A stretch of DNA of 64,000 nucleotides from an uncultured bacterium (GTDB lineage: Bacteria; Patescibacteriota; Minisyncoccia; Phycocordibacterales; PALSA-1337), in contig CAIQIZ010000029.1 in assembly GCA_903872035.1 (NCBI GenBank), positions 479 through 64,478 of the forward strand, given 5' to 3'. This document shows positions 1,210 through 64,000 of the stretch, one piece after another. The notes under the pieces are model-generated. The model was not told where the DNA came from, did not search any database, and saw only the letters and a list, made by a program, of their open reading frames with translations. Within the stretch, counting starts at the first letter, position 1; the number at the start of each line of letters is the position of its first letter. A program made the translations under genes and the position numbers.

Positions 1210-1221
1210 ACTTCATCTTGG

Positions 1222-9982: not shown

Positions 9983-9988
9983 CAAGAT

Positions 9989-10162: not shown

Positions 10163-10405
10163 ATGAAATCACTCCACGGAGTAGCATTTATTTTATTGAT
10201 TATCGGCGGTATCAATTGGCTTCTGGTTGGCCTTGGAATGTGGTTCGGCGGAAACTGGAATGTCGTCACTCTTATTCTCGGCGGTGTTCCATGGCTCGAA
10301 GCATTGGTTTATGTCCTGGTAGGCCTATCAGCCATCAAGCTTCTCATGTGTCACAAGAAGACTTGCAAGGAATGTGACAAGGGAGCCGCTCCGGCACAGA
10401 TGTAA
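10163..10405 (+). CDS. DUF378-family small membrane protein
   Basis: 'GGINWLLVGLGMWFGGNWNVVTLILGG' is the characteristic DUF378 double-transmembrane motif. A terminator follows. Confidence 0.65.
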   Translation: MKSLHGVAFILLIIGGINWLLVGLGMWFGGNWNVVTLILGGVPWLEALVYVLVGLSAIKLLMCHKKTCKECDKGAAPAQM

Positions 10406-10445
10406 TTCAGCAGAATTACCTACTGGGTAGTATTTGAAAAGTTTC

Positions 10446-10472
10446 GGATGAAAAAACCATCTCAAAACGAGG
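10446..10472 (+). terminator. Intrinsic terminator
   Basis: Hairpin accatctc-aaaac-gaggtggt followed by tttttt. Confidence 0.55.
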
Positions 10473-10533
10473 TGGTTTTTTCTATCAATGTACAACCATT
10501 CGTTTTTGGGTTATTATAGCCAAACCGTCAAAA

Positions 10534-10588
10534 GGGCCCGTAGCTCAATTGGTAGAGCGTCCCGATGCACATCGGGGAGGCAAGCGGT
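10534..10588 (+). pseudogene. 5' fragment of a tRNA-Ala-like gene, from the acceptor through the 5' strand of the T-stem
   Basis: The first 26 nt are identical to tRNA-Ala(UGC) at 10864. It has a different, irregular anticodon arm (tcccg-atgcacat-cgggg, an 8-nt loop). It shares aggcaagcggt, then runs straight into the GIY-YIG ORF. Confidence 0.6.
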
Positions 10589-10591
10589 ACT

Positions 10592-10855
10592 ATGTCTTTC
10601 GTATATATCTTACAGAGCAAAAAGACAGGCCGATACTACATAGGTAGCACAAATGATTTGTCGCGACGATTAGCGGAGCATAATTCAGACCAAACCAAAT
10701 CGCTCATCTACCAAAGGCCATTGGTTGTAGTATTCTCGAAAGAATACGGTAACTTGTCAGATGCGAGAAGGATAGAAAGGAAATTGAAGAAAATGAAAAG
10801 TCGGAGTATCATCGAGCACATAGTACACGACCAGGAGATCAAAGTTGTTTCATAA
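10592..10855 (+). CDS. Small stand-alone GIY-YIG nuclease (YazA/UPF0213-like)
   Basis: 'FVYILQSKKTGRYYIGSTNDLSRRLAEHN' is a textbook GIY-YIG motif. About 88 aa. Confidence 0.8.
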   Translation: MSFVYILQSKKTGRYYIGSTNDLSRRLAEHNSDQTKSLIYQRPLVVVFSKEYGNLSDARRIERKLKKMKSRSIIEHIVHDQEIKVVS

Positions 10856-10863
10856 CGTCATCA

Positions 10864-10939
10864 TGGGCCCGTAGCTCAATTGGTAGAGCGCCTCATTTGC
10901 AATGAGGAGGCAAGCGGTTCGAAACCGCTCGGGTCCACC
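10864..10939 (+). tRNA. tRNA-Ala (anticodon UGC), with CCA encoded
   Basis: Acceptor gggcccg/cgggtcc with G3:U70. Anticodon loop ttTGCaa. T-arm agcgg-ttcgaaa-ccgct. Confidence 0.85.
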
Positions 10940-11076
10940 ACTGGCAAAAATGCCGAGACTTGTTCTCGGTATTTTTGACAGTGAGGGGGCGGTCGGGAGT
11001 GGTTTCGAAGGACGGAGCGAGCGGAGGCGAGCGAGTCGGGGTCGCGGGCCGAGCCAGCAGGCGAGGACCCGTGACC

Positions 11077-11717: not shown

Positions 11718-12704
11718 TTAGCTCCTACTCAACGCCAACTCGATGACATGATCAACCAGCTCATACGTGTCGCTGCCGACAGCGCGAAGAGCTTTGGGCA
11801 TGAGAGATTCGCCGGTCAGACCTGGCAAAGTATTCACTTCAAGCACATAGATCCCCCGCCGCGGATGGATGATGAAATCAGAACGGGAATAGTGGCGCAA
11901 ACCGAGCACTTGGTGGATCTTTCGCGCCAGGCTCTCGATGGCACGCTTGAACATATCTTGAAAAGTAGCGGGCACGATCTCTTGGGACATGCCTTGATAC
12001 TTGGCTTCGTAGTCGAAGAACTTGGTCATGGGACGGATCTCTATGGGTGGCAAGGCATACAATTCCTGGCCACGAAATCCTTCGATGACGCCACAGGTCG
12101 CTTCGATGCCTGGAATGAATTCTTCTATCATGACTGAATCAGAATGGAGAGAGGCCGCCTTCAAAGCTTCGGGCAATTCGTTGTAATAGATGACCTTGGT
12201 CACGCCGACCGACGAACCGCTTGCCGTTGGTTTGACGATGGCTGGCATAAGAAAGGAATGAAATAGATCGCCTGCAACATTTGTCGTATTATCCCTGATC
12301 AACGCTGATGGAATCTCCCTGCTGTAAGGCGAACGAATGCCATGATCCTTGAAAGCCTTCTTAGACAATACTTTATTCATTCCCACAGCCGAGCCTAATG
12401 AACCGCTTCCGGTAAAAGGCAAGCCGTGTGCCTCCAAAAAAGCCTGAACTTTTCCATCTTCGCCATAGGCGCCATGTAAGGCATTGAAAGCCACGTCGAT
12501 ATGTTTTGATGCGTCAGATGGCTGGATCGGGACGCCATTCATATGCCAAATGCCATTCTTATCAATAAAAACGTCACAGGCCTCGTACTTATCACTAAAT
12601 CGATCCTTGAGCACAGACAATACTGCCGCTCCGGAATTCAACGACACCTGGTATTCATTCGATGGCCCTCCGCGCAAAACGCCGACACGTGTGTGGTGAT
12701 TCAT
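11718..12704 (-). CDS. ddl: D-alanine--D-alanine ligase
   Basis: ATP-grasp fold. 'AFNALHGAYGEDGKVQAFLEAHGLPFTGSG' and the C-terminal 'EVNTLPGLT' motif. Confidence 0.9.
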   Translation of the reverse strand: MNHHTRVGVLRGGPSNEYQVSLNSGAAVLSVLKDRFSDKYEACDVFIDKNGIWHMNGVPIQPSDASKHIDVAFNALHGAYGEDGKVQAFLEAHGLPFTGSGSLGSAVGMNKVLSKKAFKDHGIRSPYSREIPSALIRDNTTNVAGDLFHSFLMPAIVKPTASGSSVGVTKVIYYNELPEALKAASLHSDSVMIEEFIPGIEATCGVIEGFRGQELYALPPIEIRPMTKFFDYEAKYQGMSQEIVPATFQDMFKRAIESLARKIHQVLGLRHYSRSDFIIHPRRGIYVLEVNTLPGLTGESLMPKALRAVGSDTYELVDHVIELALSRS

Positions 12705-12908
12705 GCAGACATTGTAACGTATTTACAATGTATTCAGAAGTGAATAGAAACGATTCGCTTGGTGAATGATGTCTCCTCGCCTCCTCGCAAGGTCGCCATT
12801 CCAAATTGCAGCCGTATGCGCTTCCAGGGATTCAGCTCATACGGGCAATTTGTTCATGGCTCAGATCGCATTGCGAGTCATCTCGAAGACATCATTCACC
12901 AAGCTCAC

Positions 12909-14168
12909 CTAGAACAAACTCTTTGATCTTCGCAACCGATGATACTTGATAGCAAATCTATGCGCCTCTGCATTCACAGCAATGATTTCTTGACGATGTG
13001 CATTTACAAGTTCAGCCGAACCGATCAATTCAGATGCTTTATGTTTGTCGTCTTTTTTTACAGCGACGACTGGAATCTCTACTCGCCTGGCTTTGAGCAC
13101 TGATTCAGCAGCTTTCTTTTGCATTTCATTTCCATCGACGACGATCAGATCTGGGTAATCCCATTCGCTATGATTCAAACGCCTGAATAGAATTTCCGAA
13201 AGTCCGGCCACATCATTATTCGCTTCTCTAGATATCTTGAATTTTCGGTACTCGTTTGAAGATAGTTGGCCATTTATTGAAACCGTCATGGCTCCGACGA
13301 CATTTGTGCCAGATAGATGTGCGATGTCGTATGCTTCTATTCTGTAAGTCCGATTGGATGGTCCGACCGCGGAATCGCTCGATGTGCCCCCATTCGATTC
13401 AGTCGCATTCCTCTTGATCAACGCTATATCGTTAATGTGATCGAGAGCGTAGAGCAGCTTTCTATTCTGGCCAGCTTCTTCAAATTTCATAGCCTTAGCA
13501 TTTCGCTTCATATCACGTTCAATCAATGAACGGACTCGCTTGCTATTCCCTTCAAAGAAAAGCGATAAATATCTGATAGTTTTCAGGTAGTCTTTTCTTG
13601 CCTCCGAATCATTACTATCCGGCGACTGACCCAAAGATTCGTAGAACCTCTCATGCCGAGGATCGTGAGCTTTCTTGTCTCTGAATGGAAAGATTCGACG
13701 CAATATCTTCAACGCTTCTTTGATCAGTGCTCCCTCCACAAACGGCCCGAACTGCTTCAAAACCTTGTATTGCAAAACGCCTCCATCTGAATGTTGCTCA
13801 AAATCTCTCGCTCTTACCAGGAAGACTCTCGGCCAAGGTTCGTCCGTAATGATCACATACTGATCGCTCTTATCATCCCTCTCGGCCACATTATGATATG
13901 GCTGGTAGCGTTTGATGAGAGAGCTCTCTAAAAGGATTGCTTCCAAGACCGAATCTGTCTTCTGCCAAGTCAGAGTCTTTGCTTTGGTAACCATGTCAAT
14001 GATCCGCGGACCACGAGTATCGATGAGATCAATAGCAAAATAGCTTTTGACACGATCTTTTAGGGAGGTAGCACGACCGATGTAGATTGGCCGTCGGCGA
14101 TAGTCCCTGAATATGTAAACGCCCGGCTGATCAGGCAGTTTCTTGTTTTTGACATATTGACGTTTCAT
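12909..14168 (-). CDS. uvrC: Excinuclease ABC subunit C, short 419-aa form without the C-terminal helix-hairpin-helix region
   Basis: N-terminal GIY-YIG 'GVYIFRDYRRRPIYIGRATSLKDRVKSYF'. Central RNase H-like region 'EAYDIAHLSGTNVVGAMTV'. Adjacent to uvrA. Confidence 0.8.
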   Translation of the reverse strand: MKRQYVKNKKLPDQPGVYIFRDYRRRPIYIGRATSLKDRVKSYFAIDLIDTRGPRIIDMVTKAKTLTWQKTDSVLEAILLESSLIKRYQPYHNVAERDDKSDQYVIITDEPWPRVFLVRARDFEQHSDGGVLQYKVLKQFGPFVEGALIKEALKILRRIFPFRDKKAHDPRHERFYESLGQSPDSNDSEARKDYLKTIRYLSLFFEGNSKRVRSLIERDMKRNAKAMKFEEAGQNRKLLYALDHINDIALIKRNATESNGGTSSDSAVGPSNRTYRIEAYDIAHLSGTNVVGAMTVSINGQLSSNEYRKFKISREANNDVAGLSEILFRRLNHSEWDYPDLIVVDGNEMQKKAAESVLKARRVEIPVVAVKKDDKHKASELIGSAELVNAHRQEIIAVNAEAHRFAIKYHRLRRSKSLF

Positions 14169-51210: not shown

Positions 51211-51582
51211 TTATTTAATGAGACAATCTTTGTATGTCGGGCTATTCGGATCTCCCTCTGTAATGAATGCCGTGTTCCCCTTGTTCCAGAAGACTATCGA
51301 CTCGTCGGTATTGGCATATCTAGCGCCGGAAGCAGAGATGGTCTGCGGCAATGTTAATTCTCCCAAACGTGCAGTCCTGATTCGCGCAAAATTTTTGTAG
51401 AACTCAGCATCGATCGATTTGGAATCAGCACAAGAAAAAGTCACGACATTTATCGGGTATCCCAAGATCTTCACAATAGCTACCTTATGGCCTAGATAAA
51501 AGCCAAAATAGAATACCGCCACAAACAGAATAATGGCAACGATCTGCGAAAAGACAGTGACTTTGGTCCAAATTATTTTCAT
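51211..51582 (-). CDS. MliC-family membrane-bound lysozyme-inhibitor-like protein
   Basis: N-terminal anchor. 'SASGARYANTDESIVFWNKGNTAFI' with two cysteines bracketing the domain (CADS...KDC). Confidence 0.55.
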   Translation of the reverse strand: MKIIWTKVTVFSQIVAIILFVAVFYFGFYLGHKVAIVKILGYPINVVTFSCADSKSIDAEFYKNFARIRTARLGELTLPQTISASGARYANTDESIVFWNKGNTAFITEGDPNSPTYKDCLIK

Positions 51583-51589: not shown

Positions 51590-54500
51590 TTATAACTTTA
51601 ATACATTCTTCACACCACTGACGACACGATCAAAAACATATACAGCGCCGGATGGAACGGCCCATAAAAGATTTTTGGTAAACGACCAGAGAAAGGTTGG
51701 AATGCTAGGCGGCGTGACTAAAACGGTTATTTCAGCATTTGGAGACACGCTATCCATTTCGAGGTTATCTTGTACCGACTGATTAGAATTTGAAACAGGG
51801 GCAGACTTCCTTACCAATACATTTGCGGGAGGATTATTTACAACTGGAGGCACCACGACATTATGTGCCTGTATATCTGCGAGAGTCGAGAACATGCCAT
51901 CGCCGGAAATAGCGCTATTACCAGATCCATCAGTCGAGATCACTGCGTAATGATAAGTCGTGCTCGGTGTAAGGCCGCTCAAAATGACAGAGTGATAAGC
52001 GCTTCTAGTCGAATCCAGGGACGTGAGCTGACCGTAAGTATAGTATAAGCCGTATTTAACCTGGTTAGTGGATAGCTCGTTGGTGTCCCAAGTTATCTCG
52101 ACACTGTTCTTGGTAACATTCGATACGCCAATAGAATAAAGTGACGGCGGTATACTGTCGACTGCTGCACTAAAATTGGCCGAAATAGTATGATTGGCGG
52201 AGATATTGGAAAATGTGTAGGTACCGTTCGTTAAGGAAGAGCTGTTGCCATCAACGACGAAGGAAGATACCTGATAGCCGGCATTGGGAACGATAGTAAA
52301 TGTCTGATTGCTTCCTGAACTTACCGTGATGATTCCGCTGGGAACGACCGAACCATTGGAACGGTAGGAGGAATCGATCGTGTAAGTTACTGTTGGATGA
52401 CTTGAGGCAGTCACAGTTACGCGGTCGGTCGAAGAACGAGATCCATCGGAAACTGAGACTTCTAACACATAGCTACCAGCTTGAGAGAATGTTGCAGTCG
52501 GAGAGATGTTGTGCAAGTTAGAGAATGTTACTGATCCGGGACCAGAGATCTTTGACCACGAGTATGTAAGCGAATCAGCATCAGGATCAGATGAAGCGGC
52601 TGCCGAAAGACTTGCCGTAGCTGGCAAAATAACGGTCTGATCTTGTCCTGCTTCCGCCACTGGAGACCTGTCCAAGTTTATGACAGAGACAGTGACAATC
52701 TTCGAAGCAGAAGCACCATGAGAGTCAGTCGCTGTGAAGGTCACTGCGTAATTTCCAGACTGACTGTACGTCGGTGTCCAAGAGAATGTTTGGTTTGAGA
52801 AATTGAAGGTAGCACCGCTCGGCATATTTGAAGTGCTATACGCTATCACATCACCGTCAGGGTCAGAAGCTGAAACTGTGAAACTCAAACTGGAGTTCTC
52901 ATTGACTGACTTATCACTGATCGCCGTGAACGTAGGCGCGTGATTGCTCTGCTGAGCTGAAAAACTGGCTACGATCGTATGATTGGCGGATATATTGGAG
53001 AGCGTATATGTATTGGCTGTAAGAGAAACTCCAGATCCATCCACGGTCACATTTGAGATTTGATATCCAGGATTGGCGGACACTATGAAAGCCTGGCTGC
53101 TGCCTGAATTTACCGTGACTGAACCGCTTGGCGCGATCGAACCATTAGATCCTGCTGAAGCCGAAATAGTATATGTGACTCTGGGAATATTCACTGGCAA
53201 AGTTACGGTTACTACAGCAGACCTTGATACTGAAACATTCCCTGATCCGTCTTTTGCCCAGGCATATAGGGTCTTTGTTCCTGCCGATGCAAATGTGTAT
53301 GTCGTAGGAGCTGCCGATAACCAACCGGCTGCCCCGGAAGACGGTGTCGTAGCGCCGGTATAGATAGATGTCGCATTTCCAGCACCAGCTGTTTGGCCTT
53401 GCGAACTACCATCTGACTCTGTGACCATGTATCCACTAACGCCAGAAACGATCTGTCCGCTCGTCGAAGGATCACTAGCCACAACAGTGATCGGGACCGT
53501 CAACGAACTGGCTGTTGTAGGCACGGTGAATGTGGTGACGATAGGTATAGTCATATCAGAGCCTGGAGGAGACGCTGGAATATTTGTAACATTTACGTAT
53601 AGTCTACGAATCAAACTATTTGAAACATTGCCAGCTGCATCTTTTGCCCAGGCATACAGAGTCTTTGCGCCACCAGAAGCAACAGTGTAACTAGCTGGTG
53701 CCGTTGCCGACCAGCCGGATGCTGTCGCTAACGGCTTTGTCGACGACTCAGTTATCATATACCCGGTGACTGCCGTCGAATCGACCGCAGTGAGCGAACT
53801 CACCGGGATCGTAAGCGACGTGACCGGACTAGGAGTGAGAAAAGCTGTAACCGTCGGAGGAGTGACATCGAGGTAGGGGTCACCGCTCGAAGATGTCACA
53901 TTTATCGTAACCGATCCCTGAAGAGACGAGACCTGATCATCTGGCGGTGCCCAAACACCGGTCATAGAGATATTCAAAGTAAACTGTGTATGATTTTGAA
54001 TATTAAATATAGCCGAATTCGCCACCAATATCTGACCGGCCGAGTCGATTGAGAATGCCCCGCTTTCATTCCCGCTATTTATCGTAAATCCTCTCGCCTG
54101 GATCGCGTCTGATTGCGAATAAGCGACCTTTCCTACCACAGTACCATTCGCTGCAGATCTATCCACAGTGAATGTCTGAGATTGGATAGTAGGCGGAGTG
54201 TATGAGTTAAAACAGGACATATCCAGGGTCGTCACTTGGTAGATATTGGGATTATTCCCAAGATCAGTCATGGCCTGGTTTATTTCAGGAATATACGCTC
54301 CGACCATAGATGCAATTCCACCACCATGCTGAACTGAAACCAAAATCAAGGTGTTATTGATGAGAAAAAAGCTGGGATGACCAGAGTCCCCGTCATAGGC
54401 CATTTGTGAAAGAAACGGTGTCGCTGCCCAAGTGATAGCTTCCAGACCGAACGGATAGAAGGCGGAATTGGAAGAGTATGCTGTCGTATTATCGCCGCCA

Positions 54501-55204
54501 TTATCGATTTTTCGTATCAAAAATTCGTTAAGCTGATCGAAAAAGATCATTGGCACGTAGAGCGATTGCGATATATGAGAAGACAAATCTGAGCTGGATA
54601 TCACTGGATAATACGCAACTGTGCTGGGTAAATCACTATCAAAGACAACCAGGGCCAGATCGGTTGAACCGATCTCTTTCAACCCCACGACTGTACGGGT
54701 GTAATCGACGCCGTCGGTACCACGGAACAAGACTATTTGATTGAGGTGCACTCCATAACCATTCAAATGCCACGCCGTTAGAGCATGCCTGGGACTGATC
54801 AGAGTAAATCCATAGAAATCGGTGGCAGTGTGGACAATGCTATGACCAGTAAAATTGAGACCAGTCGGCCAAGTACGCAAATAATAACTGGGACTACCAT
54901 TAGGGTCTCTGTTAACATTGGTTGTCGCGTCGGATGGTATAGAGACTCCATTGATCTTACCTTTCAGCTGGCTGAATAATTCCGTATACAAGTACTTTGA
55001 GGCGGGACATGATGAAAGATGGAAAACCGGACCACTAAAACCGACGACTTGTGCCTTCAAGACGTTCGGATTCAGCAATGAAACTGTTCTATTAATCGAG
55101 CTATATTGTGTGCAAATAACAATTAAGGAGGCGACGATAAAAAAACTAATTATGGGCGAAACCTTAGGAGAATTTTTTATGCAAAACTGCATACGGATAT
55201 ACAC
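51590..55204 (-). CDS. Giant surface protein: N-terminal trypsin-like serine protease domain, tandem Ig/PKD/cadherin-like repeats, conserved C-terminal module
   Basis: N-terminal transmembrane or signal segment. S1-like triad motifs 'LTAWHL', 'TDLALVVFD' and 'GDSGHPSFF'. At least four repeated ~90-aa modules (...TYTFSNISANHTI..., ...DPDGD...SWTPTYSQSGNYAVTFTATDSHG...). The C-terminus '...DRVVSGVKNVLKL' is shared with the next gene. Confidence 0.75.
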   Translation of the reverse strand: MYIRMQFCIKNSPKVSPIISFFIVASLIVICTQYSSINRTVSLLNPNVLKAQVVGFSGPVFHLSSCPASKYLYTELFSQLKGKINGVSIPSDATTNVNRDPNGSPSYYLRTWPTGLNFTGHSIVHTATDFYGFTLISPRHALTAWHLNGYGVHLNQIVLFRGTDGVDYTRTVVGLKEIGSTDLALVVFDSDLPSTVAYYPVISSSDLSSHISQSLYVPMIFFDQLNEFLIRKIDNGGDNTTAYSSNSAFYPFGLEAITWAATPFLSQMAYDGDSGHPSFFLINNTLILVSVQHGGGIASMVGAYIPEINQAMTDLGNNPNIYQVTTLDMSCFNSYTPPTIQSQTFTVDRSAANGTVVGKVAYSQSDAIQARGFTINSGNESGAFSIDSAGQILVANSAIFNIQNHTQFTLNISMTGVWAPPDDQVSSLQGSVTINVTSSSGDPYLDVTPPTVTAFLTPSPVTSLTIPVSSLTAVDSTAVTGYMITESSTKPLATASGWSATAPASYTVASGGAKTLYAWAKDAAGNVSNSLIRRLYVNVTNIPASPPGSDMTIPIVTTFTVPTTASSLTVPITVVASDPSTSGQIVSGVSGYMVTESDGSSQGQTAGAGNATSIYTGATTPSSGAAGWLSAAPTTYTFASAGTKTLYAWAKDGSGNVSVSRSAVVTVTLPVNIPRVTYTISASAGSNGSIAPSGSVTVNSGSSQAFIVSANPGYQISNVTVDGSGVSLTANTYTLSNISANHTIVASFSAQQSNHAPTFTAISDKSVNENSSLSFTVSASDPDGDVIAYSTSNMPSGATFNFSNQTFSWTPTYSQSGNYAVTFTATDSHGASASKIVTVSVINLDRSPVAEAGQDQTVILPATASLSAAASSDPDADSLTYSWSKISGPGSVTFSNLHNISPTATFSQAGSYVLEVSVSDGSRSSTDRVTVTASSHPTVTYTIDSSYRSNGSVVPSGIITVSSGSNQTFTIVPNAGYQVSSFVVDGNSSSLTNGTYTFSNISANHTISANFSAAVDSIPPSLYSIGVSNVTKNSVEITWDTNELSTNQVKYGLYYTYGQLTSLDSTRSAYHSVILSGLTPSTTYHYAVISTDGSGNSAISGDGMFSTLADIQAHNVVVPPVVNNPPANVLVRKSAPVSNSNQSVQDNLEMDSVSPNAEITVLVTPPSIPTFLWSFTKNLLWAVPSGAVYVFDRVVSGVKNVLKL

Positions 55205-55206
55205 TA

Positions 55207-56685
55207 TTATAACTTTAATACATTCTTCACACCACTGACGACACGATCAAAAGCGTACTGGAAAAAAGATGGGATGGCGAATACAATTTCCTTGGTAAAT
55301 GACCAGATAAATGCCGGAATGCTGGGCGGCGTTGCAGATGCTATATCCTGACTAATAGGGGAATTTAATATGATAGGGGTGACTTTCTGATCAGATGGGG
55401 CCGGTGTCTTATTGGCAGGCTGGGAGATCTTTTTTGTTACGGATACATTGGCAGGTGGATCGTGCACAACCGGAGGACTAATGATTACTGGCGGATCGAT
55501 AGCGGCATGAGTCTGCACCGGAGATGGACTTATAGTAGCGGCCACGGCAGTGAAATTGGCCATGATCGTATGATTGGCAGTGATATTAGTAAATGTATAA
55601 GTACTATTGGTCAGCGAACCATTGTTATTATCGACAATGACACTGGCGGTTTGGTATCCAGGGTCGGGAATCAAGGTGAAGGTCTGATTGCTTCCGGAAT
55701 TCACCGTCAACTTTCCATTTGGAGAGATGCGTCCGTTCGGATTAGCGGAGGAATTAATAGTGTAGGTGACCATCGGAACGTTAGAAACAGTCATCGTGAT
55801 ACGGTCAGTTGAAGACTTTGTTCCATCTGAAACTGCCAGTTCGATCACATATACGCCAGACTGTGAAAAAGAGGCGGCCGAAGCGACAGTGTGATAACTG
55901 GAAAACGAGACGAGTCCTGGACCAGAGACCTTTGACCACGAATATGTTAACGGATCATTGTCGGGATCGTACGAAGCTGCCGCCGAAAGATTTGCCGAGG
56001 CTGGCAAGCCGATGGTCTGGTCCTGCCCCGCCTCCGCAACTGGAGGCCGGTCGATGTTCACGACCGAGATTGTGACGATTTCAGAAGCAGATACGCCATG
56101 AGTATCAGTAGCTGTGAAGATCACAGAGTAAATGCCCGACTGGTAGTATGTCGGCGTCCAAGAGAATGTTCGACTCGTTGAGTCGAAACTGGCACCACTT
56201 GGCAGATTTGAAGCGGAATAAGTCAGAGTGCCACCATTAGATGGAGATGCGGTAACAGTGAAATTCAATGCGGAACTTTCATTGACAGATTTATTCCCTG
56301 TCGCCACGAAAACAGGCGGGTGCTGGTCTGGCAGCGCAGAAAAACTAACTGCGATCGTATGAGTGGCGATGACATTAGAAAACGTATACGAACCGTTCGT
56401 CAGAGAAACCCCGCTTCCATCGACCACCGCATTCGAAACTTGATATCCCGAGTTAACGGAAACAATGAAGGCCTTACTGCTTCCGGAATTCGCAGTGATC
56501 GTGCCACTCGGTGCTATAGAACCGTTCGGACCGGCGAAAGCAGTAATAGAATATGTAGCCGCCTGACTGGAATCAGCACTCATGGTGGTCGGTCGATATT
56601 GCGTGCAAATAACGATAGTTAATGCAACGAGCAATAAGCTGAGGATCCGTGATACTTCGCGTGAGTTAAATATTTGAGACCGCAT
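55207..56685 (-). CDS. Paralogous surface protein: Ig/PKD-like repeats and the same C-terminal module, with no protease domain
   Basis: Repeats near-identical to 51590-55204 (SWTPTYYQSGIYSVIFTATDTHG). The last ~14 aa are identical. A ~50-bp identical DNA segment lies at both gene 3' ends (51580-51640 and 55200-55260). Confidence 0.75.
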   Translation of the reverse strand: MRSQIFNSREVSRILSLLLVALTIVICTQYRPTTMSADSSQAATYSITAFAGPNGSIAPSGTITANSGSSKAFIVSVNSGYQVSNAVVDGSGVSLTNGSYTFSNVIATHTIAVSFSALPDQHPPVFVATGNKSVNESSALNFTVTASPSNGGTLTYSASNLPSGASFDSTSRTFSWTPTYYQSGIYSVIFTATDTHGVSASEIVTISVVNIDRPPVAEAGQDQTIGLPASANLSAAASYDPDNDPLTYSWSKVSGPGLVSFSSYHTVASAASFSQSGVYVIELAVSDGTKSSTDRITMTVSNVPMVTYTINSSANPNGRISPNGKLTVNSGSNQTFTLIPDPGYQTASVIVDNNNGSLTNSTYTFTNITANHTIMANFTAVAATISPSPVQTHAAIDPPVIISPPVVHDPPANVSVTKKISQPANKTPAPSDQKVTPIILNSPISQDIASATPPSIPAFIWSFTKEIVFAIPSFFQYAFDRVVSGVKNVLKL

Positions 56686-56779: not shown

Positions 56780-57745
56780 GTGACCATGAGGCGTTTTGTA
56801 TACGTTATATCCCTAGCTATACTGGTAATCGCAGGTATTTTCATGTACCAAAGATCAGCCATCGTCCAGCAGGTGTTCAATAAGATAGCAATCGGCATAA
56901 AGAATGCGTATTCTCCACCGGTACCCTGCACTCAACCTACCCTGTATTCAGTAGATTCATTCGACGACCGATTTGGCATAGATGTCGGTCAATTCCGGGT
57001 CGATATTGCCAAAGCCGCCACTGTTTGGAACGCCGCTCTGGGAAAAACGCTTTTCAAATACGATCCCGCCGGCCCATTGAAGGTTAACTTGATCTACGAT
57101 TACCGCGAACAAGCTACAGTCCAATTGAAGAAGATAGACATGGCCATAAGCACAGACAAAGGCACCTACGAGGCACTCAAAGCGAAATATGACAGTCTCC
57201 AGCAACAATATTCAGTCCGTAAGGCTTCCCTCCAATCGAGAACCGACTCATACAATCAAGCGCTATCAGCTTACAATGCCCTGGTGGCTTCCTGGAACGA
57301 CCGTGGCGGCGCTCCGCAGGCTGAATATCAGAATCTCCAGACAACAAAGCAAAACCTGGCAAACCAAGCAGCTTCTATTACAAAAGACCGCGCATCTTTC
57401 AACCAATTGGTAGAAAACTTGAATTCAACGGCCGCCGAACTAAATAGCCTCGGCCGGACACTGAACATGAACGTCAAAAATTATAATACCGTCGGAGCCT
57501 CGACTGGCGAGCAATTCAGCGAGGGCGAATATGTGCAAGATTCAGGCAGTACGCGCATCGATATCTACCAGTTCAAAGATGAGAATCAGCTCATCCGAGT
57601 CCTAGAACACGAGCTCGGTCACGCCCTCGGACTGGGGCACGTCAATGATCCCAAAGCCATCATGTATTATCTGAACTCGGGAACAAATGAGAAGCTGACA
57701 GAGGCAGATCTCTCCGAATTGAATGCGATCTGCAGCCAAAAGTAG
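56780..57745 (+). CDS. Membrane-anchored matrixin-like zinc metalloprotease (M10 family) with a coiled-coil region
   Basis: 'LEHELGHALGLGHVNDPKAIMY' is an HExxHxxGxxH plus Met-turn motif. N-terminal transmembrane segment. A Q/A/L-rich coiled-coil middle region. Confidence 0.75.
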   Translation: MTMRRFVYVISLAILVIAGIFMYQRSAIVQQVFNKIAIGIKNAYSPPVPCTQPTLYSVDSFDDRFGIDVGQFRVDIAKAATVWNAALGKTLFKYDPAGPLKVNLIYDYREQATVQLKKIDMAISTDKGTYEALKAKYDSLQQQYSVRKASLQSRTDSYNQALSAYNALVASWNDRGGAPQAEYQNLQTTKQNLANQAASITKDRASFNQLVENLNSTAAELNSLGRTLNMNVKNYNTVGASTGEQFSEGEYVQDSGSTRIDIYQFKDENQLIRVLEHELGHALGLGHVNDPKAIMYYLNSGTNEKLTEADLSELNAICSQK

Positions 57746-58180
57746 CGGTCAGGTAATATTATATCGAGGCTTGGCTTTTGAAGGAATTGAACTATAATGC
57801 AGACAGAGAAAGGCCTCCATATGATAGACGATGAAACTTCAAAAAGTATCATGGCTGGTAGGCTCATCAGACTTGAAACTACCTGCGCCATCGAAGACGA
57901 GGTTATGAACCTAAAGGCGTGGCTCCAGCAATTCCGGCCTGTCGTCACCGTCAATGTTTTTACGGAACAAAACATTACTCGAGCGACATTGTGGATCGGC
58001 GCCCTGCCGCTCGATCGACGATCGCTTTTAGCCGGTACTCTGCGATCCAATCGTCTCAACTTCCGAATTCTGAACGGCAACTCGAGCTGACGCTTCAAGT
58101 ATCATCTCGAAAACGACGTTCACGTGATGTTAAATACCTATCGTGAACGCTTTTTTGTCCAACATAGCCTACACACAACA

Positions 58181-58576
58181 ATGAATCATCAAAATCAAAA
58201 TCGGATCTTCGTCTTTGGAAACCCTGACTTGGAGATGGATTCATTGCCTTTCAAACTCATGCCAAAGCTTGCCGAAGCCTTCCCTTCCATGCGATTCGAA
58301 TTGAAAGATCCAAATGAGGAATGGGATGTACCAGAAGAAATGGTAGTCATAGATGCTGTTATCGACTTGGAAAAGGTCACCATTTTCAATGACTTGGAAT
58401 CGTTCGACGCTTCGCCGCATCTTTCCATGCATGATTTTGATGCGCTCTCCAATCTAAAATACTTAAAGAAACTAGGTAAACTCAAGAAAATTACCATCAT
58501 TGGAGTACCCGTAGGGATAACTGAAGAGGAAGCATTTGAAAATATCACCAAAAGAATCAGAGAGGTCGTGAACTAG
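58181..58576 (+). CDS. [NiFe]-hydrogenase maturation endopeptidase (HycI/HyaD/FrhD family)
   Basis: 'RIFVFGNPDLEMDSLPFKLMPKL' matches the conserved N-terminal motif of hydrogenase maturation proteases. About 130 aa. Adjacent to the hydrogenase genes. Confidence 0.6.
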   Translation: MNHQNQNRIFVFGNPDLEMDSLPFKLMPKLAEAFPSMRFELKDPNEEWDVPEEMVVIDAVIDLEKVTIFNDLESFDASPHLSMHDFDALSNLKYLKKLGKLKKITIIGVPVGITEEEAFENITKRIREVVN

Positions 58577-58577
58577 A

Positions 58578-58604
58578 GACAAAAAAGCGACCTCGCGAGG
58601 CCGC
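58578..58604 (-). terminator. Intrinsic terminator for the minus-strand hydrogenase unit
   Basis: Minus-sense gcggcctcgcgaggtcgc followed by ttttttg. Confidence 0.55.
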
Positions 58605-58608
58605 CGTG

Positions 58609-59064
58609 TTAGATCGATCCATCCTTCTCAACTTCGGCAATGCCAAACAAATGGCAGTAAACCAAATCATCAGTGGCAATAGGAAGCTTGTACCTGTTGA
58701 AGGCACGAAATTTCTTGTCGCCAACAGCGATCAGAGCAGAAATCTCGTTGAAGCTCAGAACTTTACCGACAACGGTATCACATTGGCGCACTCGGCCTTT
58801 ATGCTTCCGCCAGAATGGTCTGACCAAATCTGTAGGCCAATCAGACAGAGTTCGAATGTCAAATCCAGTCTCTTGTGCAAATCGACCAGTCGCTGCCTGA
58901 TAGCAGTTTACCAACAATCTCGTATCTGGCTCTTCGTTTTGATCGACGCACCTGGTCAATTCATCAGCTTCGAACTGTCTAATTTGGCCCCGCTTTACCC
59001 TGAGGTCCAAGCAGAAATATGCGTATCGCAAGAAAAGCAGCTTTCCTGGTATATCAGAAATCAA
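58609..59064 (-). CDS. Hypothetical protein co-transcribed downstream of the hydrogenase large subunit
   Basis: A 151-aa ORF. The minus strand is preferred over the overlapping plus ORF because of the minus-strand terminator at 58578-58604. Confidence 0.35.
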   Translation of the reverse strand: MISDIPGKLLFLRYAYFCLDLRVKRGQIRQFEADELTRCVDQNEEPDTRLLVNCYQAATGRFAQETGFDIRTLSDWPTDLVRPFWRKHKGRVRQCDTVVGKVLSFNEISALIAVGDKKFRAFNRYKLPIATDDLVYCHLFGIAEVEKDGSI

Positions 59065-59126
59065 GTTTCCTTTCTAAAGGCCACAATAATTGGAGCCGAT
59101 TTATTATCTAAAATTAGGATAGCACC

Positions 59127-60506
59127 TTAGGCGCTGCATGTGTAGGGACCGTGATTGTGAGGATGATTTTGATCATGAGAATGACCGTGATCGTGAGAAT
59201 GTGGACCAGCATCTTTCCCCATCCACTTAACTTTCAAGAAATGTGCTCCACAACTCATACAAGGGTCATAAGCACGGATTAACTTCTCTATTTCCATACC
59301 GATCTTCTCTTTGGATTCAGTCTCTATGATAGGCTCAACGACGGCTGCCACATCTCTCTCGATATTCACTTGATTTTGTCCTGTTGGAACAATGACTTCC
59401 CCATCATGGACGATTCCCTGATCATCAATCACGACCTTGTGATACAAAGTGCCCCTCGGCGCTTCAATAACACCAATACCAGTACCAGCACGCATAGGAA
59501 CTTTTATGACAGGTTCTGGCTTGAAGACTGTGCTGCTCAAGATCTCTATCGATTCATCGATCGAATGCAAGATCTCTATAGCTTGCGCCAAATTGTTGTG
59601 GAAGATATTAGTCGATGGGAATAGCTTCAATGCTTCTGCAGCCGACTTCTTGGTATTCGGATGTAACTTATCTTTAGCTAGATTTATCCTGGCCAATGCT
59701 CCAACCATATAGCTCTCACCTTTGTATTTATATGCTGAGGCTTGAGAATATGGAAGCACTGTATGTTCCAAATGGGAGCGGAATTCCTTCTGTTCGTAGA
59801 CCTCACCTGTATCAGTGATGATCTTTCCACCGATATAGCCGAATGTGTCTTCTGGTATCAATGCCATAAACTTGGTCTTTCTGTCCAAGTGCTGTGAATC
59901 CTTAGCAAAAATCTCGATCAAGCGAAGAACGGCCGGTCTGGCAGCTTTCATTTCTTCTATACATTGAGCGGCGCCTTCAGGTGATGGAAATTGTAAGAAA
60001 CCACCAATGACTGGGAACGTGGCATGGACGCTTCTTCCGGCCACCAACTGCGAGAGATGATTTCCAGCAGACTTCACGTCGAAACCATCATGTAATAGCT
60101 GATGCTGCGTAGGGTCGTTATCATCAAAATCGAGAAAGGCGTCTTTATTGAATAGGTCAGGCATGACGAACAAATAGAGATGCAGAGCATGATCACGCGA
60201 AACCAAACCGTGCATGGTCAGCTTGCGGAGCAATTTCGTCTGTGGTGTGACTTCGATTCCTAGAGCATCCTCTGCTGCAGCAATAGCAGCCATGACATGA
60301 GCGTTGGAACATGTACCGCAGATCCTCGACAAATGGGCTGGAATAGCGGCGATGTTCTTGCCTTTCATAGCTTCGGTGAAGAAACGCTTGTACTCGACGA
60401 TAGCGAACTTCACATCGGTGACCTTGCCGTCATTCACGGTCACGTCCATTGAGGCGTCACCTTCTATTTTGGTTATGTGGTCTAGCCGTAGGTCGATTCT
60501 GTGCAT
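59127..60506 (-). CDS. [NiFe]-hydrogenase large (catalytic) subunit
   Basis: N-terminal 'RICGTCSNAH' (RxCGxCxxxH). C-terminal 'DPCMSCGAH' followed by a His-rich tail that matches a protease-cleaved extension. Confidence 0.88.
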   Translation of the reverse strand: MHRIDLRLDHITKIEGDASMDVTVNDGKVTDVKFAIVEYKRFFTEAMKGKNIAAIPAHLSRICGTCSNAHVMAAIAAAEDALGIEVTPQTKLLRKLTMHGLVSRDHALHLYLFVMPDLFNKDAFLDFDDNDPTQHQLLHDGFDVKSAGNHLSQLVAGRSVHATFPVIGGFLQFPSPEGAAQCIEEMKAARPAVLRLIEIFAKDSQHLDRKTKFMALIPEDTFGYIGGKIITDTGEVYEQKEFRSHLEHTVLPYSQASAYKYKGESYMVGALARINLAKDKLHPNTKKSAAEALKLFPSTNIFHNNLAQAIEILHSIDESIEILSSTVFKPEPVIKVPMRAGTGIGVIEAPRGTLYHKVVIDDQGIVHDGEVIVPTGQNQVNIERDVAAVVEPIIETESKEKIGMEIEKLIRAYDPCMSCGAHFLKVKWMGKDAGPHSHDHGHSHDQNHPHNHGPYTCSA

Positions 60507-60557
60507 GGTGATTATTAGGGATTAAAGATTATTTATCGGAAGTTTTGAATTCAAATA

Positions 60558-61043
60558 TTAATAAGATCGCAGCTCTTTAACAAGCGCGTTCACCTTCTCC
60601 AAAAAGACTTTTGGATCCATGGGGCAACCAGGAATCTCTACATCTACCTTTACCACATCGGAGACTTTCTTTACGTCGGTCAAAGCGCCGAATCTGGTCA
60701 GGAGATAATCAATACTGGCTTTTTGTTCTGCCGTAAAATTGTTGCGTTGACCAGCTGGCATGCCGACAATAGCACAGGCACCGACGGCCACAAGCTTCTT
60801 GGAACGATTGCGGATATCTTTGAGTTTCTCAACATGTTCTGGTGAAGCCATGGCACCTTCGATAAAAGCGATATCAAATTCATCCATGATATTGTTGGAC
60901 TTCAAGACGCGAGCGTGGCGAAAATCGAACATTTCTTTCCATTCCTGCCAGTGGTCATTCATGACTTCGGTCATGACGATAGTATTATCCTCACAACATG
61001 AGAATGAGAACCAGCCGATCTTGATCTTGGGTAGGTCTGCCAT
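60558..61043 (-). CDS. [NiFe]-hydrogenase small subunit, minimal form with only the proximal [4Fe-4S] cluster
   Basis: Cysteines at 'FSCCEDN', 'GACAIVG' and 'PGCPM', as in small subunits of group 3/4 enzymes. About 160 aa from the MADLPKIKI start. Confidence 0.8.
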   Translation of the reverse strand: MADLPKIKIGWFSFSCCEDNTIVMTEVMNDHWQEWKEMFDFRHARVLKSNNIMDEFDIAFIEGAMASPEHVEKLKDIRNRSKKLVAVGACAIVGMPAGQRNNFTAEQKASIDYLLTRFGALTDVKKVSDVVKVDVEIPGCPMDPKVFLEKVNALVKELRSY

Positions 61044-61082
61044 AAAAGTGATTGTATCATAATTATCATGTATAATTAAGGC

Positions 61083-62843
61083 GTGAGAAAATCCCACGAC
61101 AGTGTGTTCACAGTCGGCATAGGTGGAGCAGCCGGCGATGGTATCCGGGAATCGGGTTCCACTCTTGGCGCCATCCTGACCGAGCTCGGATATGAGTCGT
61201 TCATGTCATTCACCTATCCTTCGCTCATCCGCGGCGGGCACAATTTTGCGCGCATAACTTTCAGCAAAGACAAAGTCTACTCCGATCACGAAGCCTTGGA
61301 CGTCATGATCGCCTTGAATGAAGAGAGTGTCGTCTTCCATCGAGCCGAGATGGCCGAAAACTCCGTAGTCATGGCGGATACGTTTGAACAAGCCGACCTC
61401 GATGTGTTGAAAGACAAAGCTTTGGTAATTCCCATGCAAGCCAAGGCCAAGGAAATAAACGCTCCAGCCATCACCAGAAACTCAATGGCCCTAGGCGCAC
61501 TCTGTTATCTGCTCGACCTTGATTTTGATCTTATGCAAAAAGTCCTCGGTGATGTGTTCAAGAACAAAATGCCTGAGATGAATATCAAATTGGCCGATGC
61601 TGGGTACCAATTGCTCAAAGCCAAGGGATTCAAACATTCGAAAAAGATCCAGCCGAGCCAAGAAAAAAAACAATTCGTCGACGGCAACGAAGCTTTCGGC
61701 CGAGGCTTGGTAGCAGCGGGCCTCGACTTCTATGTCGGGTATCCGATGACTCCAGCAACAACCATACTTCAATACCTGGCTGGCGCAGCTCAAAAAGCCG
61801 CCCAGTCGCCCGAACGCGAAATCGGTTCGAATCTGCGCGTCATTCAACCTGAAAGCGAACTCTCTGTTATCAATATGGCCCTGGGAATGTCCTATGCCGG
61901 CAAGCGCGTGGCTATCGGATCCGCATCCGGCGGCTTCGCATTGATGCAAGAAGCTTTCAGCTGTGCAGGAATGGCCGAATTGCCGCTTGTTGTGGCTGTC
62001 TCCCAGAGACAAGCACCGGCTACCGGTTTACCTACATATTCTAGCCAAACTGACCTCCGTTTCGTCATTCATGCCGGTCATGGAGAATTCCCTAGGATCG
62101 TCGTCGCACCAGGCGATGGAGAAGAAGCATTCAAGCTTGGCGCAGACGCATTGAACTTAGCCTGGAAGTATCAGTTGCCAGTGATCGTATTGTTGGACAA
62201 GATTATTTCAGAACACATCACCTCGTGCGACTTGAAAACAGACGCGATTAAGATCGACCGTGGATTGATATTAACTGCTGCCGATAATTACGGCCGATAC
62301 CAAATCACTTCTGATGGCATCTCCCCTATAGCATTTCCAGGAACTTCCAATGCCGTAGTCAAAGTGACAAGCTATGAGCATGATCAGAATGGCATTACAG
62401 TCGATGATCCGGATGCTACCAAAGCCATGCTCAATAAGCGTTTCGCCAAATCTGACAGATTGAAGAAATCGCTCGGTGACCAAGAGACAGTCAAAGTATA
62501 TGGAGACCGTCTTAGCAAGGATGTCGTTGTTTTCTGGGGTTCGACTAAAGGACCTGTTTTGGAATCAGCCAGATATCTGAAGAAAAAAGTAAAATTCGTA
62601 CAAATCGTCTGGCTGGAACCTTTTGACGTCAAACGAGTTGCCAAAGAATTGGCTGGGGTAAGAAGAATAATCAACATCGAATGTAACCACGATGCCCAAA
62701 TGGCTAATTTGATCAGAGAGAAGACTGGCATCGAGGTGACGGATAAGATATTGAAATTTGATTCGAGGCCATTCGAGCCGGTGGCACTGGCCGAGGAGAT
62801 CAACAAGTCGCTAGGTGAAGCCTCGCGAGATCTCGCAAGGTGA
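61083..62843 (+). CDS. 2-oxoacid:ferredoxin oxidoreductase alpha subunit (KorA/PorA-type, fused domains)
   Basis: 586 aa. A pyruvate/2-oxoglutarate:ferredoxin oxidoreductase domain arrangement with conserved 'GYPMTPAT...' and 'VAPGDGEEAF'. Translationally coupled to the beta subunit. Confidence 0.8.
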   Translation: MRKSHDSVFTVGIGGAAGDGIRESGSTLGAILTELGYESFMSFTYPSLIRGGHNFARITFSKDKVYSDHEALDVMIALNEESVVFHRAEMAENSVVMADTFEQADLDVLKDKALVIPMQAKAKEINAPAITRNSMALGALCYLLDLDFDLMQKVLGDVFKNKMPEMNIKLADAGYQLLKAKGFKHSKKIQPSQEKKQFVDGNEAFGRGLVAAGLDFYVGYPMTPATTILQYLAGAAQKAAQSPEREIGSNLRVIQPESELSVINMALGMSYAGKRVAIGSASGGFALMQEAFSCAGMAELPLVVAVSQRQAPATGLPTYSSQTDLRFVIHAGHGEFPRIVVAPGDGEEAFKLGADALNLAWKYQLPVIVLLDKIISEHITSCDLKTDAIKIDRGLILTAADNYGRYQITSDGISPIAFPGTSNAVVKVTSYEHDQNGITVDDPDATKAMLNKRFAKSDRLKKSLGDQETVKVYGDRLSKDVVVFWGSTKGPVLESARYLKKKVKFVQIVWLEPFDVKRVAKELAGVRRIINIECNHDAQMANLIREKTGIEVTDKILKFDSRPFEPVALAEEINKSLGEASRDLAR

Positions 62844-62850
62844 AACCTCT

Positions 62851-63636
62851 ATGAATTCAATTCCCAACTTATCAACAACCGCAAAGATCACCTGGTGCCC
62901 AGGTTGCCCGAATTCGCAGATTCTGGTGGCTTTCAGGCAGACTATTGAAGATATGGTGTCATCCGGCGGCCTTAAGATCGAAAATCTGGTGGCGTGTGCT
63001 GGTATCGGATGCCATGGCAAAATTAGCGACTACTTAAACGTTAACACTTTCACCGCTTTGCATGGCCGAGTCATCCCTGTAATGACCGGAATAAAGTGTG
63101 CAAATCCAAATTTAACAGTAATAGGCATGAGCGGCGATGGCGATTCATATGATGAAGGATTCGAACACTTGATCCATGCCGCCAGACGTAATTCCGACAT
63201 AAAGCTTTTCATTCATGACAATCAGCTTTTCGCTTTGACCACCGGCCAAGCTTCGGCTGCAAGCCCCAAAGGATTCAAGGGCAAAACCACACCCGGCGGT
63301 AATATTGAAGAACCTTTCGATGCTATCCCTGTACTACTTCAAGCCGGTGCCACCTTCGTCGCCCGCTCCTACGCGGGTGACATCGCCGGCACCAAGCGCG
63401 TTATGGAAGCAGCCATCAAACACAAGGGCTTCTCATTCACGGAGATAATCCAGCCATGTATCACCTTCTTCGACACTCGCGACTATTTCAAAGAGCGCGT
63501 CTTCTGGCGTACCGGAGAGCCTGCCAGCAATGTCGACGACGCCATGAAGATGTCCCGCAAAGAAGGTGAAAAAGTGCCGCTAGGTGTGTTTTACAACGCG
63601 GTGAAGCCGACATTTGAGGAGCAAGTAATACATTAG
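62851..63636 (+). CDS. 2-oxoacid:ferredoxin oxidoreductase beta subunit (TPP-binding)
   Basis: 'TWCPGCPNSQIL' and the TPP motif 'GMSGDGDSYDEG'. Confidence 0.85.
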   Translation: MNSIPNLSTTAKITWCPGCPNSQILVAFRQTIEDMVSSGGLKIENLVACAGIGCHGKISDYLNVNTFTALHGRVIPVMTGIKCANPNLTVIGMSGDGDSYDEGFEHLIHAARRNSDIKLFIHDNQLFALTTGQASAASPKGFKGKTTPGGNIEEPFDAIPVLLQAGATFVARSYAGDIAGTKRVMEAAIKHKGFSFTEIIQPCITFFDTRDYFKERVFWRTGEPASNVDDAMKMSRKEGEKVPLGVFYNAVKPTFEEQVIH

Positions 63637-63664
63637 AACTCTAATCAATTCTCAATGAATCTTT

Positions 63665-64000
63665 ATAATCTTTTCAACCCCCGCTCCATCGCCGTCATCG
63701 GCGCATCCAACGACAAAAGTAAGGTCGGTTATGCTTTGGTGTCCAATCTTTTAAGCGGTGCCAAACGGGATATTTACCCCGTAAGCATCACTGAGAAAGA
63801 GATCCTCGGCTTGCAAGCGTATCCTTCAGTCAAAAACATTGAAGGTGAAGTGGACTTGGCCTTGATCGCCGTACGTGCAGACAGCGTTCCTTCAATACTT
63901 GAAGATTGCGGCGCCAAGAAGATCGGCACGGTGATCGTGATCGCGGCAGGATTCAAAGAGATGGGACCGGCTGGAGCGGAACTCGAAAAGCGCGTGACTG
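63665..64000 (+). CDS. Acetyl-CoA synthetase (ADP-forming) CoA-binding alpha domain, 5' part; continues past the window
   Basis: 'LFNPRSIAVIGASNDKSKVGYALVSNL...LALIAVRADSVPSILEDC' is the CoA-binding domain of NDP-forming acyl-CoA synthetases. Confidence 0.7.

Follow-up and report, generated by a model that had tools for sequence, protein, structure and literature searches.

Two clades of [NiFe]-hydrogenases related to group 3b have been described from the Candidate Phyla Radiation (CPR) by Jaffe et al. (2020; BMC Biol 18:69; PMC7304191). One of them, hyd2, stands beside group 3b in their tree on a long branch. Its small subunit is consistently truncated (mean length 164 residues versus 250), proximal beta and gamma genes are missing, and a genome-wide search with hidden Markov models (HMMs) gave no consistent beta or gamma subunit. 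HypC-like proteins, PF07992 flavoproteins and small Fe-S families were reported near hyd2, in context plots drawn for the same strand only, and its function was said to "remain uncertain." Here we analyze a candidate hyd2 locus in a 64,000-nucleotide stretch of an uncultured patescibacterium (GenBank assembly GCA_903872035.1, contig CAIQIZ010000029.1, positions 479 to 64,478 of the forward strand; hereafter the window). In this locus, genes for a two-subunit [NiFe]-hydrogenase stand beside genes for a 2-oxoacid:ferredoxin oxidoreductase (OFOR) and an ADP-forming acyl/acetyl-CoA synthetase (ACD). OFOR, ACD and a 3b-type hydrogenase have been described as a common fermentative set in CPR bacteria (PMC5220378).

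Among enzymes of solved structure, the closest large subunit is that of sulfhydrogenase I (SHI), the cytoplasmic 3b enzyme of Pyrococcus furiosus and Thermococcus (HydBGDA; 9nez, 5yxy), with which the large subunit studied here aligns end to end. Native SHI differs in being a heterotetramer, with an NADPH-binding gamma subunit, an Fe-S beta subunit and a delta subunit of 261 residues that holds three clusters and a CxxC motif, whereas here the small subunit is of 161 residues with a single cluster site, and beta and gamma are absent. An engineered SHI alpha-delta dimer (9e1j, 9e15) offers a further likeness: this two-subunit core is active, has lost the use of NADPH and makes H2 with electrons from a 2-oxoacid oxidoreductase, pyruvate:ferredoxin oxidoreductase (POR; Hopkins et al., 2011; PMC3200332).

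Group 3d HoxYH (5xf9) and HydABCSL (7t2r) likewise have a small subunit of about 180 residues with the proximal cluster only, and deliver electrons to a separate Fe-S/flavin module. However, their large subunits match ours less well (E 4e-31 and 7e-41, respectively, versus 2e-61 for 3b), and no HoxFU or HydABC genes occur here; the partner genes instead encode a free ferredoxin and a ferredoxin:NAD(P)+ reductase (FdR) of the glutathione-reductase type. This pair resembles those of class I P450 and Rieske dioxygenase systems (putidaredoxin reductase, BphA4, ArR): here as there, FdR has a small ferredoxin gene directly upstream. The acceptor here would be a hydrogenase and not an oxygenase, the ferredoxin is a three-cysteine Fer4_13/15 protein, and the link of the pair to the hydrogenase is one of synteny only. 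Finally, NuoB/PSST, MbhJ and EchC are also one-cluster proteins of about 160 residues with the same fold, but similarity to them is orders of magnitude below that to group 3, the large subunit is not NuoD-like and membrane subunits are missing.

A Truncated Hydrogenase Related to Group 3b

The large subunit (59127-60506, minus strand; 459 residues) matches PF00374 (NiFeSe_Hases) at 105.9 bits, against a cutoff of 25.8 bits. Its L1 motif (RICGTCSNAH, residues 61-70) and L2 motif (DPCMSCGAH, residues 414-422), including all four Ni-Fe cysteines, are invariant in 27 aligned relatives of 50-89% identity. With these cysteines intact and invariant, the degenerate catalytic site allowed for in the initial annotation, which was made from the letters of the window and their open reading frames (ORFs), is ruled out, and the enzyme is a bona fide [NiFe]-hydrogenase. 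Its closest PDB chains are the SHI alpha subunits 9nez_D and 5yxy_A (P. furiosus and T. kodakarensis), which align over residues 5-425, followed by 3c Mvh (2e-46), HydL of HydABCSL and 3d Hox. Matches to the NCBIfam models ShyA (7e-76) and HydA (5e-69) both fall far under the equivalog cutoffs (for ShyA, 255.7 bits against 700). By these PDB and NCBIfam scores, the enzyme is related to group 3b without being a 3b equivalog.

The group-4-like motifs proposed in the initial annotation were not borne out for the large subunit, which matches PF00374 and not Complex1_49kDa and whose L2 motif terminates in His; of its 69 PDB matches below E 0.001, the 60 listed include no group 4 or NuoD/complex I chain. 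For the small subunit, sequence similarity to NuoB and MbhJ is weak (E 6e-4 to 0.1, versus 1e-14 for group 3), and MbhJ and complex I PSST scored about three orders of magnitude worse than group 3 in a fold search (Foldseek 2e-4 versus 4e-7). No genes for group 4 membrane subunits (NuoH/NuoL-like) lie nearby, either in the window or on JGI contig Ga0073936_10000280 (L001), which agrees with the window at 99.97% identity (4 mismatches in 14,874 bases of overlap) and was used for sequence past the window end. With Pfam, NCBIfam, PDB and fold scores all against it, we rejected a group 4 assignment.

The small subunit (60558-61043, minus strand) has PF01058 (Oxidored_q6; E 8e-21) as its sole domain and aligns to residues 1-150 only of the 240-300-residue small subunits of group 3 (HydD, ShyD). 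Because the alignment covers just these first 150 or so residues, the protein lacks the domain for the medial and distal clusters, and it is predicted to carry the proximal Fe-S cluster only, as the initial annotation had noted for a protein of about 160 residues. Exactly four cysteines are common to 18 homologues at 73-88% identity (C16, C17, C90 and C140). The N-terminal motif, FSCCEDN, has tandem cysteines and not CxxC: in comparison with S-C-Y-G-C of P. furiosus delta, the second cysteine of CxxC is replaced in S-C-C-E-D-N, and an extra cysteine directly precedes the first. In the wider clade, this stretch reads mostly (S/T)CCED(N/S), with the variants TCCEGC, TCDEGC and SCSEDN; in six members, Ser at position 17 (SCSEDN) leaves three cysteines.

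The ligand set of the predicted single cluster thus appears non-canonical. Cluster N2 of complex I is reportedly ligated by tandem cysteines, and the CC pair of the small subunit has a formal resemblance to it. At the position of the replaced CxxC cysteine, the alignment has an Asp in FrhG, an enzyme whose proximal cluster has an Asp ligand. A structural model of the small subunit, of medium confidence (predicted local distance difference test, pLDDT, 67), has a fold closest to group 3 small subunits, including HydS (7t2r_E) and HoxY (5xf9_C).

Membership in the hyd2 Family

The locus appears to be a member of CPR hyd2 with nothing essential different, since every hyd2 feature reported by Jaffe et al. 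(2020) was found here: a host in Patescibacteria, an own 3b-related clade, a small subunit of 161 residues, no co-located beta or gamma gene, a HypC-like protein and, on L001, a PF07992 flavoprotein and a Fer4_13/15 ferredoxin. The arrangement, which had been put forward as unusual, is therefore already published, the truncated small subunit and the absence of beta and gamma included. All close homologues that bear a name come from Patescibacteria, Parcubacteria or Paceibacterota, and Ca. Taylorbacteria (91%) is the closest among named genomes. Upward of 120 clusters share 67% identity or more, with small subunits at 73-93% identity. In a bit-score survey of 1.84 billion representatives the clade was discrete, with 7 or 8 full-length representatives of 50%-identity clusters scoring 425-571 bits and all others at most 340.

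We thus regard the locus as adding context to a published family and not as a new kind of system. The additions are a conserved divergent linkage to OFOR and ACD, an operon of ferredoxin, FdR, small and large subunit genes in sister lineages, the SCCED(N/S) cluster motif, a diverged protease and the architecture of the HypC-like protein. Variable partner modules and an association with DUF6390 and EamA proteins in sister lineages are further new details.

Gene Neighborhoods and Candidate Electron Partners

Transcribed away from the hydrogenase genes are those for OFOR alpha, of the gamma-alpha fusion type (61083-62843, plus strand; PF01558 and PF01855; TIGR03710 at 532.7 bits, cutoff 482.75), and for OFOR beta, which has thiamine pyrophosphate and [4Fe-4S] binding (62851-63636, plus strand; 261 residues on L001; PF02775 and PF12367; NF008820 E 2e-90). 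The ACD gene follows (63655-64000, plus strand; PF13380 E 9e-20; TIGR02717 E 2e-39). It is cut by the window end, which leaves the N-terminal 115 of 677 residues; the full gene on L001 encodes CoA_binding_2, Succ_CoA_lig and ATP-grasp_5 domains.

We compared 11 genome loci and 80 metagenome loci, with at most 10 kb of flank on each side, by tblastn and ORF clustering. Single-linkage clustering of the neighboring ORFs merged ACD, beta/gamma and FdR, and FdR counts were thus taken from tblastn. Wherever the large subunit is at least 44% identical to that of the window (about 75 loci), the small subunit has 151-176 residues and 3-6 cysteines. At 31-36% identity it has 238-295 residues and 11-15 cysteines, and in those loci with enough upstream sequence it is preceded by two genes of about 343 and 285 residues, which we read as the beta and gamma genes of a classical beta-gamma-delta-alpha operon. 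Neither gene was found in the window, on L001, or within 10 kb (or the available flank) in the approximately 75 loci of the clade.

Within the window's subclade (at least 63% identity), OFOR alpha and beta are divergently adjacent to the hydrogenase in 14 of the 18 loci with enough upstream sequence, and ACD joins them where the flank allows; some loci of sister lineages have no OFOR nearby. The ferredoxin and FdR genes lie just beyond ACD, by NifU-type genes, on L001, L016, L021 and L025. On L001 they are about 2-3.5 kb past the window end, in a co-directional series (847-4275) of a NifU_N/Fer2_BFD protein, a 258-residue secreted protein, a NifU C-terminal-domain protein, the three-cysteine ferredoxin and FdR, with a NifS-like gene ahead of the series. 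The ferredoxin, a Fer4_13/15 protein with a single cluster, has only three cysteines, in the conserved motif CIGA(A/S)SC...CP. FdR (Pyr_redox_2 and Reductase_C) is a full-length homologue of the ferredoxin reductases of P450 and dioxygenase systems (PDB E 1e-44 to 1e-34). The initial annotation had reported no adjacent membrane or diaphorase subunits. This is correct inside the window, where neither Ech/Mbh nor 3b beta/gamma genes occur, but not past ACD, where ferredoxin and FdR are encoded on L001; the absence of a diaphorase holds only in the window because the window stops inside the ACD gene.

Other members of the clade combine the core with other modules. In the sister subclade (57-63% identity), ferredoxin, FdR, small and large subunit genes are co-directional in four loci (L012, L029, L030 and L031). 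In six loci (L012, L014 and L028-L031) the small-subunit gene directly follows FdR, whose stop overlaps the small-subunit start by 4 bp in L012; in L014 and L028 this order of FdR, small and large subunit is kept and no ferredoxin gene was detected. Overall, 12 loci have a detectable FdR gene within 10 kb, and ferredoxin is detected in fewer. A more distant member (L047) has an FNR-type flavoprotein upstream. In another (L064; 47% identity, small subunit of 154 residues), genes for NuoF-like and [FeFe]-HydA-like (Fe_hyd_lg_C) proteins stand upstream and HypD nearby (5562-8622 and 12493-13566, both plus strand), as also in L065. This arrangement recalls the bifurcating HydABCSL and demonstrates that the truncated core pairs with more than one kind of electron-input module. 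Neither the window nor L001 has NuoE/F/G-like genes.

In two loci (L020, about 1220-4700, and L022, about 4030-7230), an insertion of about 2.6 kb with two genes of about 567 and 314 residues splits the small- and large-subunit genes. It is possibly a mobile element inside the operon.

Proposed Electron Flow and Alternative Explanations

Having compared the locus with its relatives, we propose that the hyd2 core works as a heterodimer served by a soluble ferredoxin that links OFOR, H2 and NAD(P)H, a reading to which we give an even chance. The enzyme would be a cytoplasmic [NiFe]-hydrogenase of group 3b descent, reduced to the large and small subunits, and its proximal cluster would have to exchange electrons directly with an external partner because the small subunit keeps no other. 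This partner is most likely the small, three-cysteine, single-cluster ferredoxin of the same neighborhood. The two-subunit OFOR would oxidize pyruvate or another 2-oxoacid and reduce ferredoxin, ACD would convert an acyl-CoA to the acid with formation of ATP, and the hydrogenase would re-oxidize ferredoxin by making H2, while FdR, an FAD enzyme, would equilibrate the ferredoxin pool with NAD(P)H. Support comes from the invariant catalytic cysteines and from the pairing with OFOR and ACD that 14 of the 18 informative loci of the window's subclade display. The ferredoxin and FdR genes past ACD on four contigs, and their co-directional order with the hydrogenase genes in four sister loci, also speak for it, and the engineered SHI dimer fed by POR is a precedent. 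Of the soluble, ferredoxin-coupled minimal hydrogenase suggested in the initial annotation, the minimal core is upheld, and the coupling to ferredoxin is plausible.

Several observations weigh against this proposal. The function of hyd2 was left uncertain by Jaffe et al. (2020). In the window's genome, some 7 kb separate the ferredoxin and FdR genes from those of the hydrogenase; they sit with NifU and NifS, and the pair could equally serve Fe-S cluster assembly or another pathway. FdR without a detected ferredoxin in L014 and L028 hints that the flavoprotein may dock directly. The potential of a three-cysteine, [3Fe-4S]-type ferredoxin is perhaps too positive for H2 evolution. The partner is also lineage-specific, because other clade members pair the core with NuoF-like and HydA-like proteins or with an FNR-type flavoprotein. 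Finally, the window shows none of the canonical HypD, E and F genes, which may count against the proposal with respect to maturation in this organism.

In the main rival, which we consider possible but clearly less probable, the diaphorase has been swapped and the hydrogenase is coupled to NAD(P)H. Either alone or together with ferredoxin, the Pyr_redox_2/Reductase_C flavoprotein would take the place of 3b beta and gamma, the enzyme would balance NAD(P)H and H2 as 3b and 3d enzymes do, and the adjacency of OFOR would be incidental or reflect a shared ferredoxin. The immediately upstream, co-directional FdR genes of the six sister loci, the 4-bp overlap in one of them and the greater frequency of FdR than of ferredoxin are all consistent with such coupling, as are the NAD(P)-binding partners upstream elsewhere (FNR-type in L047, NuoF-like in L064) and the PF07992 family reported near hyd2 (Jaffe et al., 2020). 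In the window's clade, however, FdR lies outside the hydrogenase operon, and the conserved immediate neighbor is OFOR-ACD. Moreover, FdR enzymes of this family normally act via ferredoxin, which would again make ferredoxin the direct partner, and H2 formation from NAD(P)H is thermodynamically unfavorable unless H2 is very low.

The remaining explanations are less likely than NAD(P)H coupling. Direct transfer from OFOR to the hydrogenase without a soluble carrier, as a natural counterpart of the engineered SHI alpha-delta dimer with POR, seems quite improbable. The divergent operons 39 bp apart, the conservation of their pairing and carrier-free H2 production from pyruvate with two-subunit SHI (Hopkins et al., 2011) are in keeping with it. 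Yet in P. furiosus the SHI delta subunit retains three clusters and that of POR has two, where here there is one cluster and a two-subunit OFOR with no ferredoxin-like subunit, so that the distance between clusters would require direct docking; in sister lineages, the hydrogenase also occurs without a nearby OFOR.

We hold it very improbable that the locus encodes an ordinary group 3b sulfhydrogenase with beta and gamma elsewhere in the genome, even though its large subunit is closest to 3b and the part of the genome inspected amounts to only about 85 kb. The initial annotation had foreseen a grouping with 3b or 3d enzymes whose partners are encoded elsewhere; the 3b grouping was found, but the lack of medial and distal clusters speaks against partners of the canonical 3b kind. 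In particular, the C-terminal domain that wires delta to beta in SHI is missing (161 residues and 4 cysteines versus about 250 residues and 11-15 cysteines). Genes for beta and gamma are near none of the approximately 75 clade loci, yet they are near the loci of 31-36% identity with enough upstream sequence, and the genome-wide HMM search of Jaffe et al. (2020) recovered no consistent beta or gamma. Least probable of all is an inactive relic, or an H2 sensor or regulator in place of a metabolic hydrogenase: the lack of HypA, B, D, E and F in the window, the odd proximal-cluster motif and the lost metal ligands of CPR Ehr proteins (Jaffe et al., 2020) could be read that way, but the Ni-Fe cysteines, a cleavable tail and a dedicated protease are kept across hundreds of sequences at high identity, and no genes for signaling partners lie nearby.

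Hyd2-type enzymes are widespread in Patescibacteria, with hundreds of 90%-identity clusters in public data, and we know of none that has been characterized. If free ferredoxin does serve the heterodimer, the enzyme would be the first [NiFe]-hydrogenase that is soluble, linked to ferredoxin and made of two subunits. Such an enzyme would explain how tiny fermenters dispose of reductant from 2-oxoacid oxidation, and would bear on H2 transfer to hosts or partners. For enzyme engineering, which was the purpose of the P. furiosus dimer, a minimal core of about 600 residues with interchangeable electron-input modules is also of interest.

Putative Maturation Factors

Downstream of the large-subunit gene and convergent with it is a protease gene (58124-58576, plus strand; likely start ATG 58181, 131 residues), which is predicted to encode a diverged [NiFe]-hydrogenase maturation endopeptidase. 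Its matches to Pfam HycI (E 1.6e-4) and TIGR00072 (E 3e-4) are both below cutoffs, and HycI is matched by 8 of 16 members of its family. A profile of the family aligned with canonical [NiFe] endopeptidases taken from 3b loci (hhalign 97.4%, E 9e-12), with the invariant GN..D20, D58 and H84 on the canonical GN..DD, D and H; the same profile gave no hydrogenase protease match in the PDB. The convergent position downstream of the large subunit recurs in 54 related loci.

The endopeptidase would cleave the C-terminal tail of the large subunit after DPCMSCGAH. In all members, the tail beyond the L2 His consists of FLKV(K/N)W and variable residues (median 9 residues). The large subunit of this organism, and no other seen, has a His-rich C-terminal tail of 37 residues (59127-59237, minus strand; PHSHDHGHSHDQNHPHNH...), which might bind nickel before its proteolytic removal.

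The 550-bp stretch between the large-subunit and protease genes was considered as non-coding, a reading that we rejected on finding a conserved ORF there. This ORF, overlooked in the initial annotation, encodes a protein of 151 residues with a TTG start and a HypC-like C-terminal domain, here called HypCx (58609-59064, minus strand). It has no Pfam or NCBIfam match, and homologues adjoin the large subunit in 16 loci. A 13-sequence alignment of HypCx matched true HypC (hhalign 95.4%, E 1.9e-8) and, in the PDB, HypC 2z1c (E 0.004). The HypC-like part comprises the C-terminal 57 residues; within it, Cys95 aligns with the essential Cys2 of HypC, at an internal and not an N-terminal position, and the invariant His138 falls inside the aligned segment. 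The N-terminal domain of about 90 residues is novel and has an invariant Cys18 in a YAxPC motif. A word-index search with HypCx returned one near-identical homologue only, and a single-sequence AlphaFold model reached a pLDDT of 40.5. In one locus (L038) a HypCx homologue stands beside a true HypC gene, and because both occur side by side we take HypCx to be a separate factor and not a mis-called HypC. As a HypC-like protein with an N-terminal extension, it would serve in hydrogenase maturation.

Neither the window, by precomputed Pfam annotation, nor L001 encodes HypA, B, D, E or F. The earlier statement that the window has no hyp genes is accurate for these five, but overlooks the HypC-like gene at 58609-59064.

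A DUF6390 (PF19927) protein of about 243 residues and an EamA-family transporter of about 307 residues directly follow the protease gene in about 26 hyd2-like loci, among them L021 (12229-13914), L012, L014, L028-L030, L037, L039, L040, L044 and L048; a true HypC gene sometimes comes next. DUF6390 could be a hydrogenase accessory or maturation factor. The window has no homologue of either protein. In the literature, we found nothing beyond Jaffe et al. (2020) on DUF6390, on truncated small subunits or on relevant hyp-gene work in Patescibacteria.

We think it unlikely, though worth stating, that a minimal soluble hyd2 takes electrons straight from free ferredoxin or OFOR through a tandem-Cys or Cys3-Asp cluster and is in addition matured without canonical HypD, E and F by lineage-specific factors, HypCx here and DUF6390 in sister lineages.

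One hyd2-like locus of 45% identity (L067, 12504-15168, minus strand) has a radical-SAM/BATS protein, HydG/ThiH-like by eye, and a HypC-radical-SAM fusion beside the protease. Radical-SAM maturases are typical of [FeFe]- and not of [NiFe]-hydrogenases.

Organization of the Locus and Other Features of the Window

The hydrogenase endopeptidase, both [NiFe] subunits, OFOR alpha and beta and the start of ACD were all confirmed in their places by the ORF listing and HMM scans. The initial annotation had grouped the protease with the hydrogenase subunit genes. Its presence there is confirmed, but it is not part of their operon: the gene is convergent with the hydrogenase operon and lies outside it, separated by a GC-rich, terminator-like hairpin with a T-run (58586-58605, minus strand; GGCGGCCTCGCGAGGTCGCT TTTTTG) directly 3' of the HypCx gene. 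As a terminator, this hairpin is suggestive only, because consensus matches across the region as a whole are not above chance.

At the other end of the operon, only 39 bp separate the start of the small-subunit gene (61043, minus strand) from that of OFOR alpha (61083, plus strand), and the two divergent promoters at 61041-61085 must therefore overlap coding sequence. Promoter-like hexamers do occur inside each other's genes, at 60961-60988 (plus strand) and 61089-61062 (minus strand), although the promoter scan did not rise above chance.

Elsewhere in the window, two very large secreted or surface proteins of 1204 and 492 residues with PKD, Big_9 and He_PIG repeats are encoded at 51590-56685 (minus strand), and their C-terminal anchor segments are near-identical. 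Next to them, an M10 metallopeptidase is encoded at 56780-57745 and an MliC-like lysozyme inhibitor at 51211-51582. This surface-protein cluster is typical episymbiont surface equipment. Six tRNA genes lie on both strands at 9343-10940 (one Val, two Pro and three Ala with three different anticodons), and a tRNA-His gene stands apart from them at 1134-1209.

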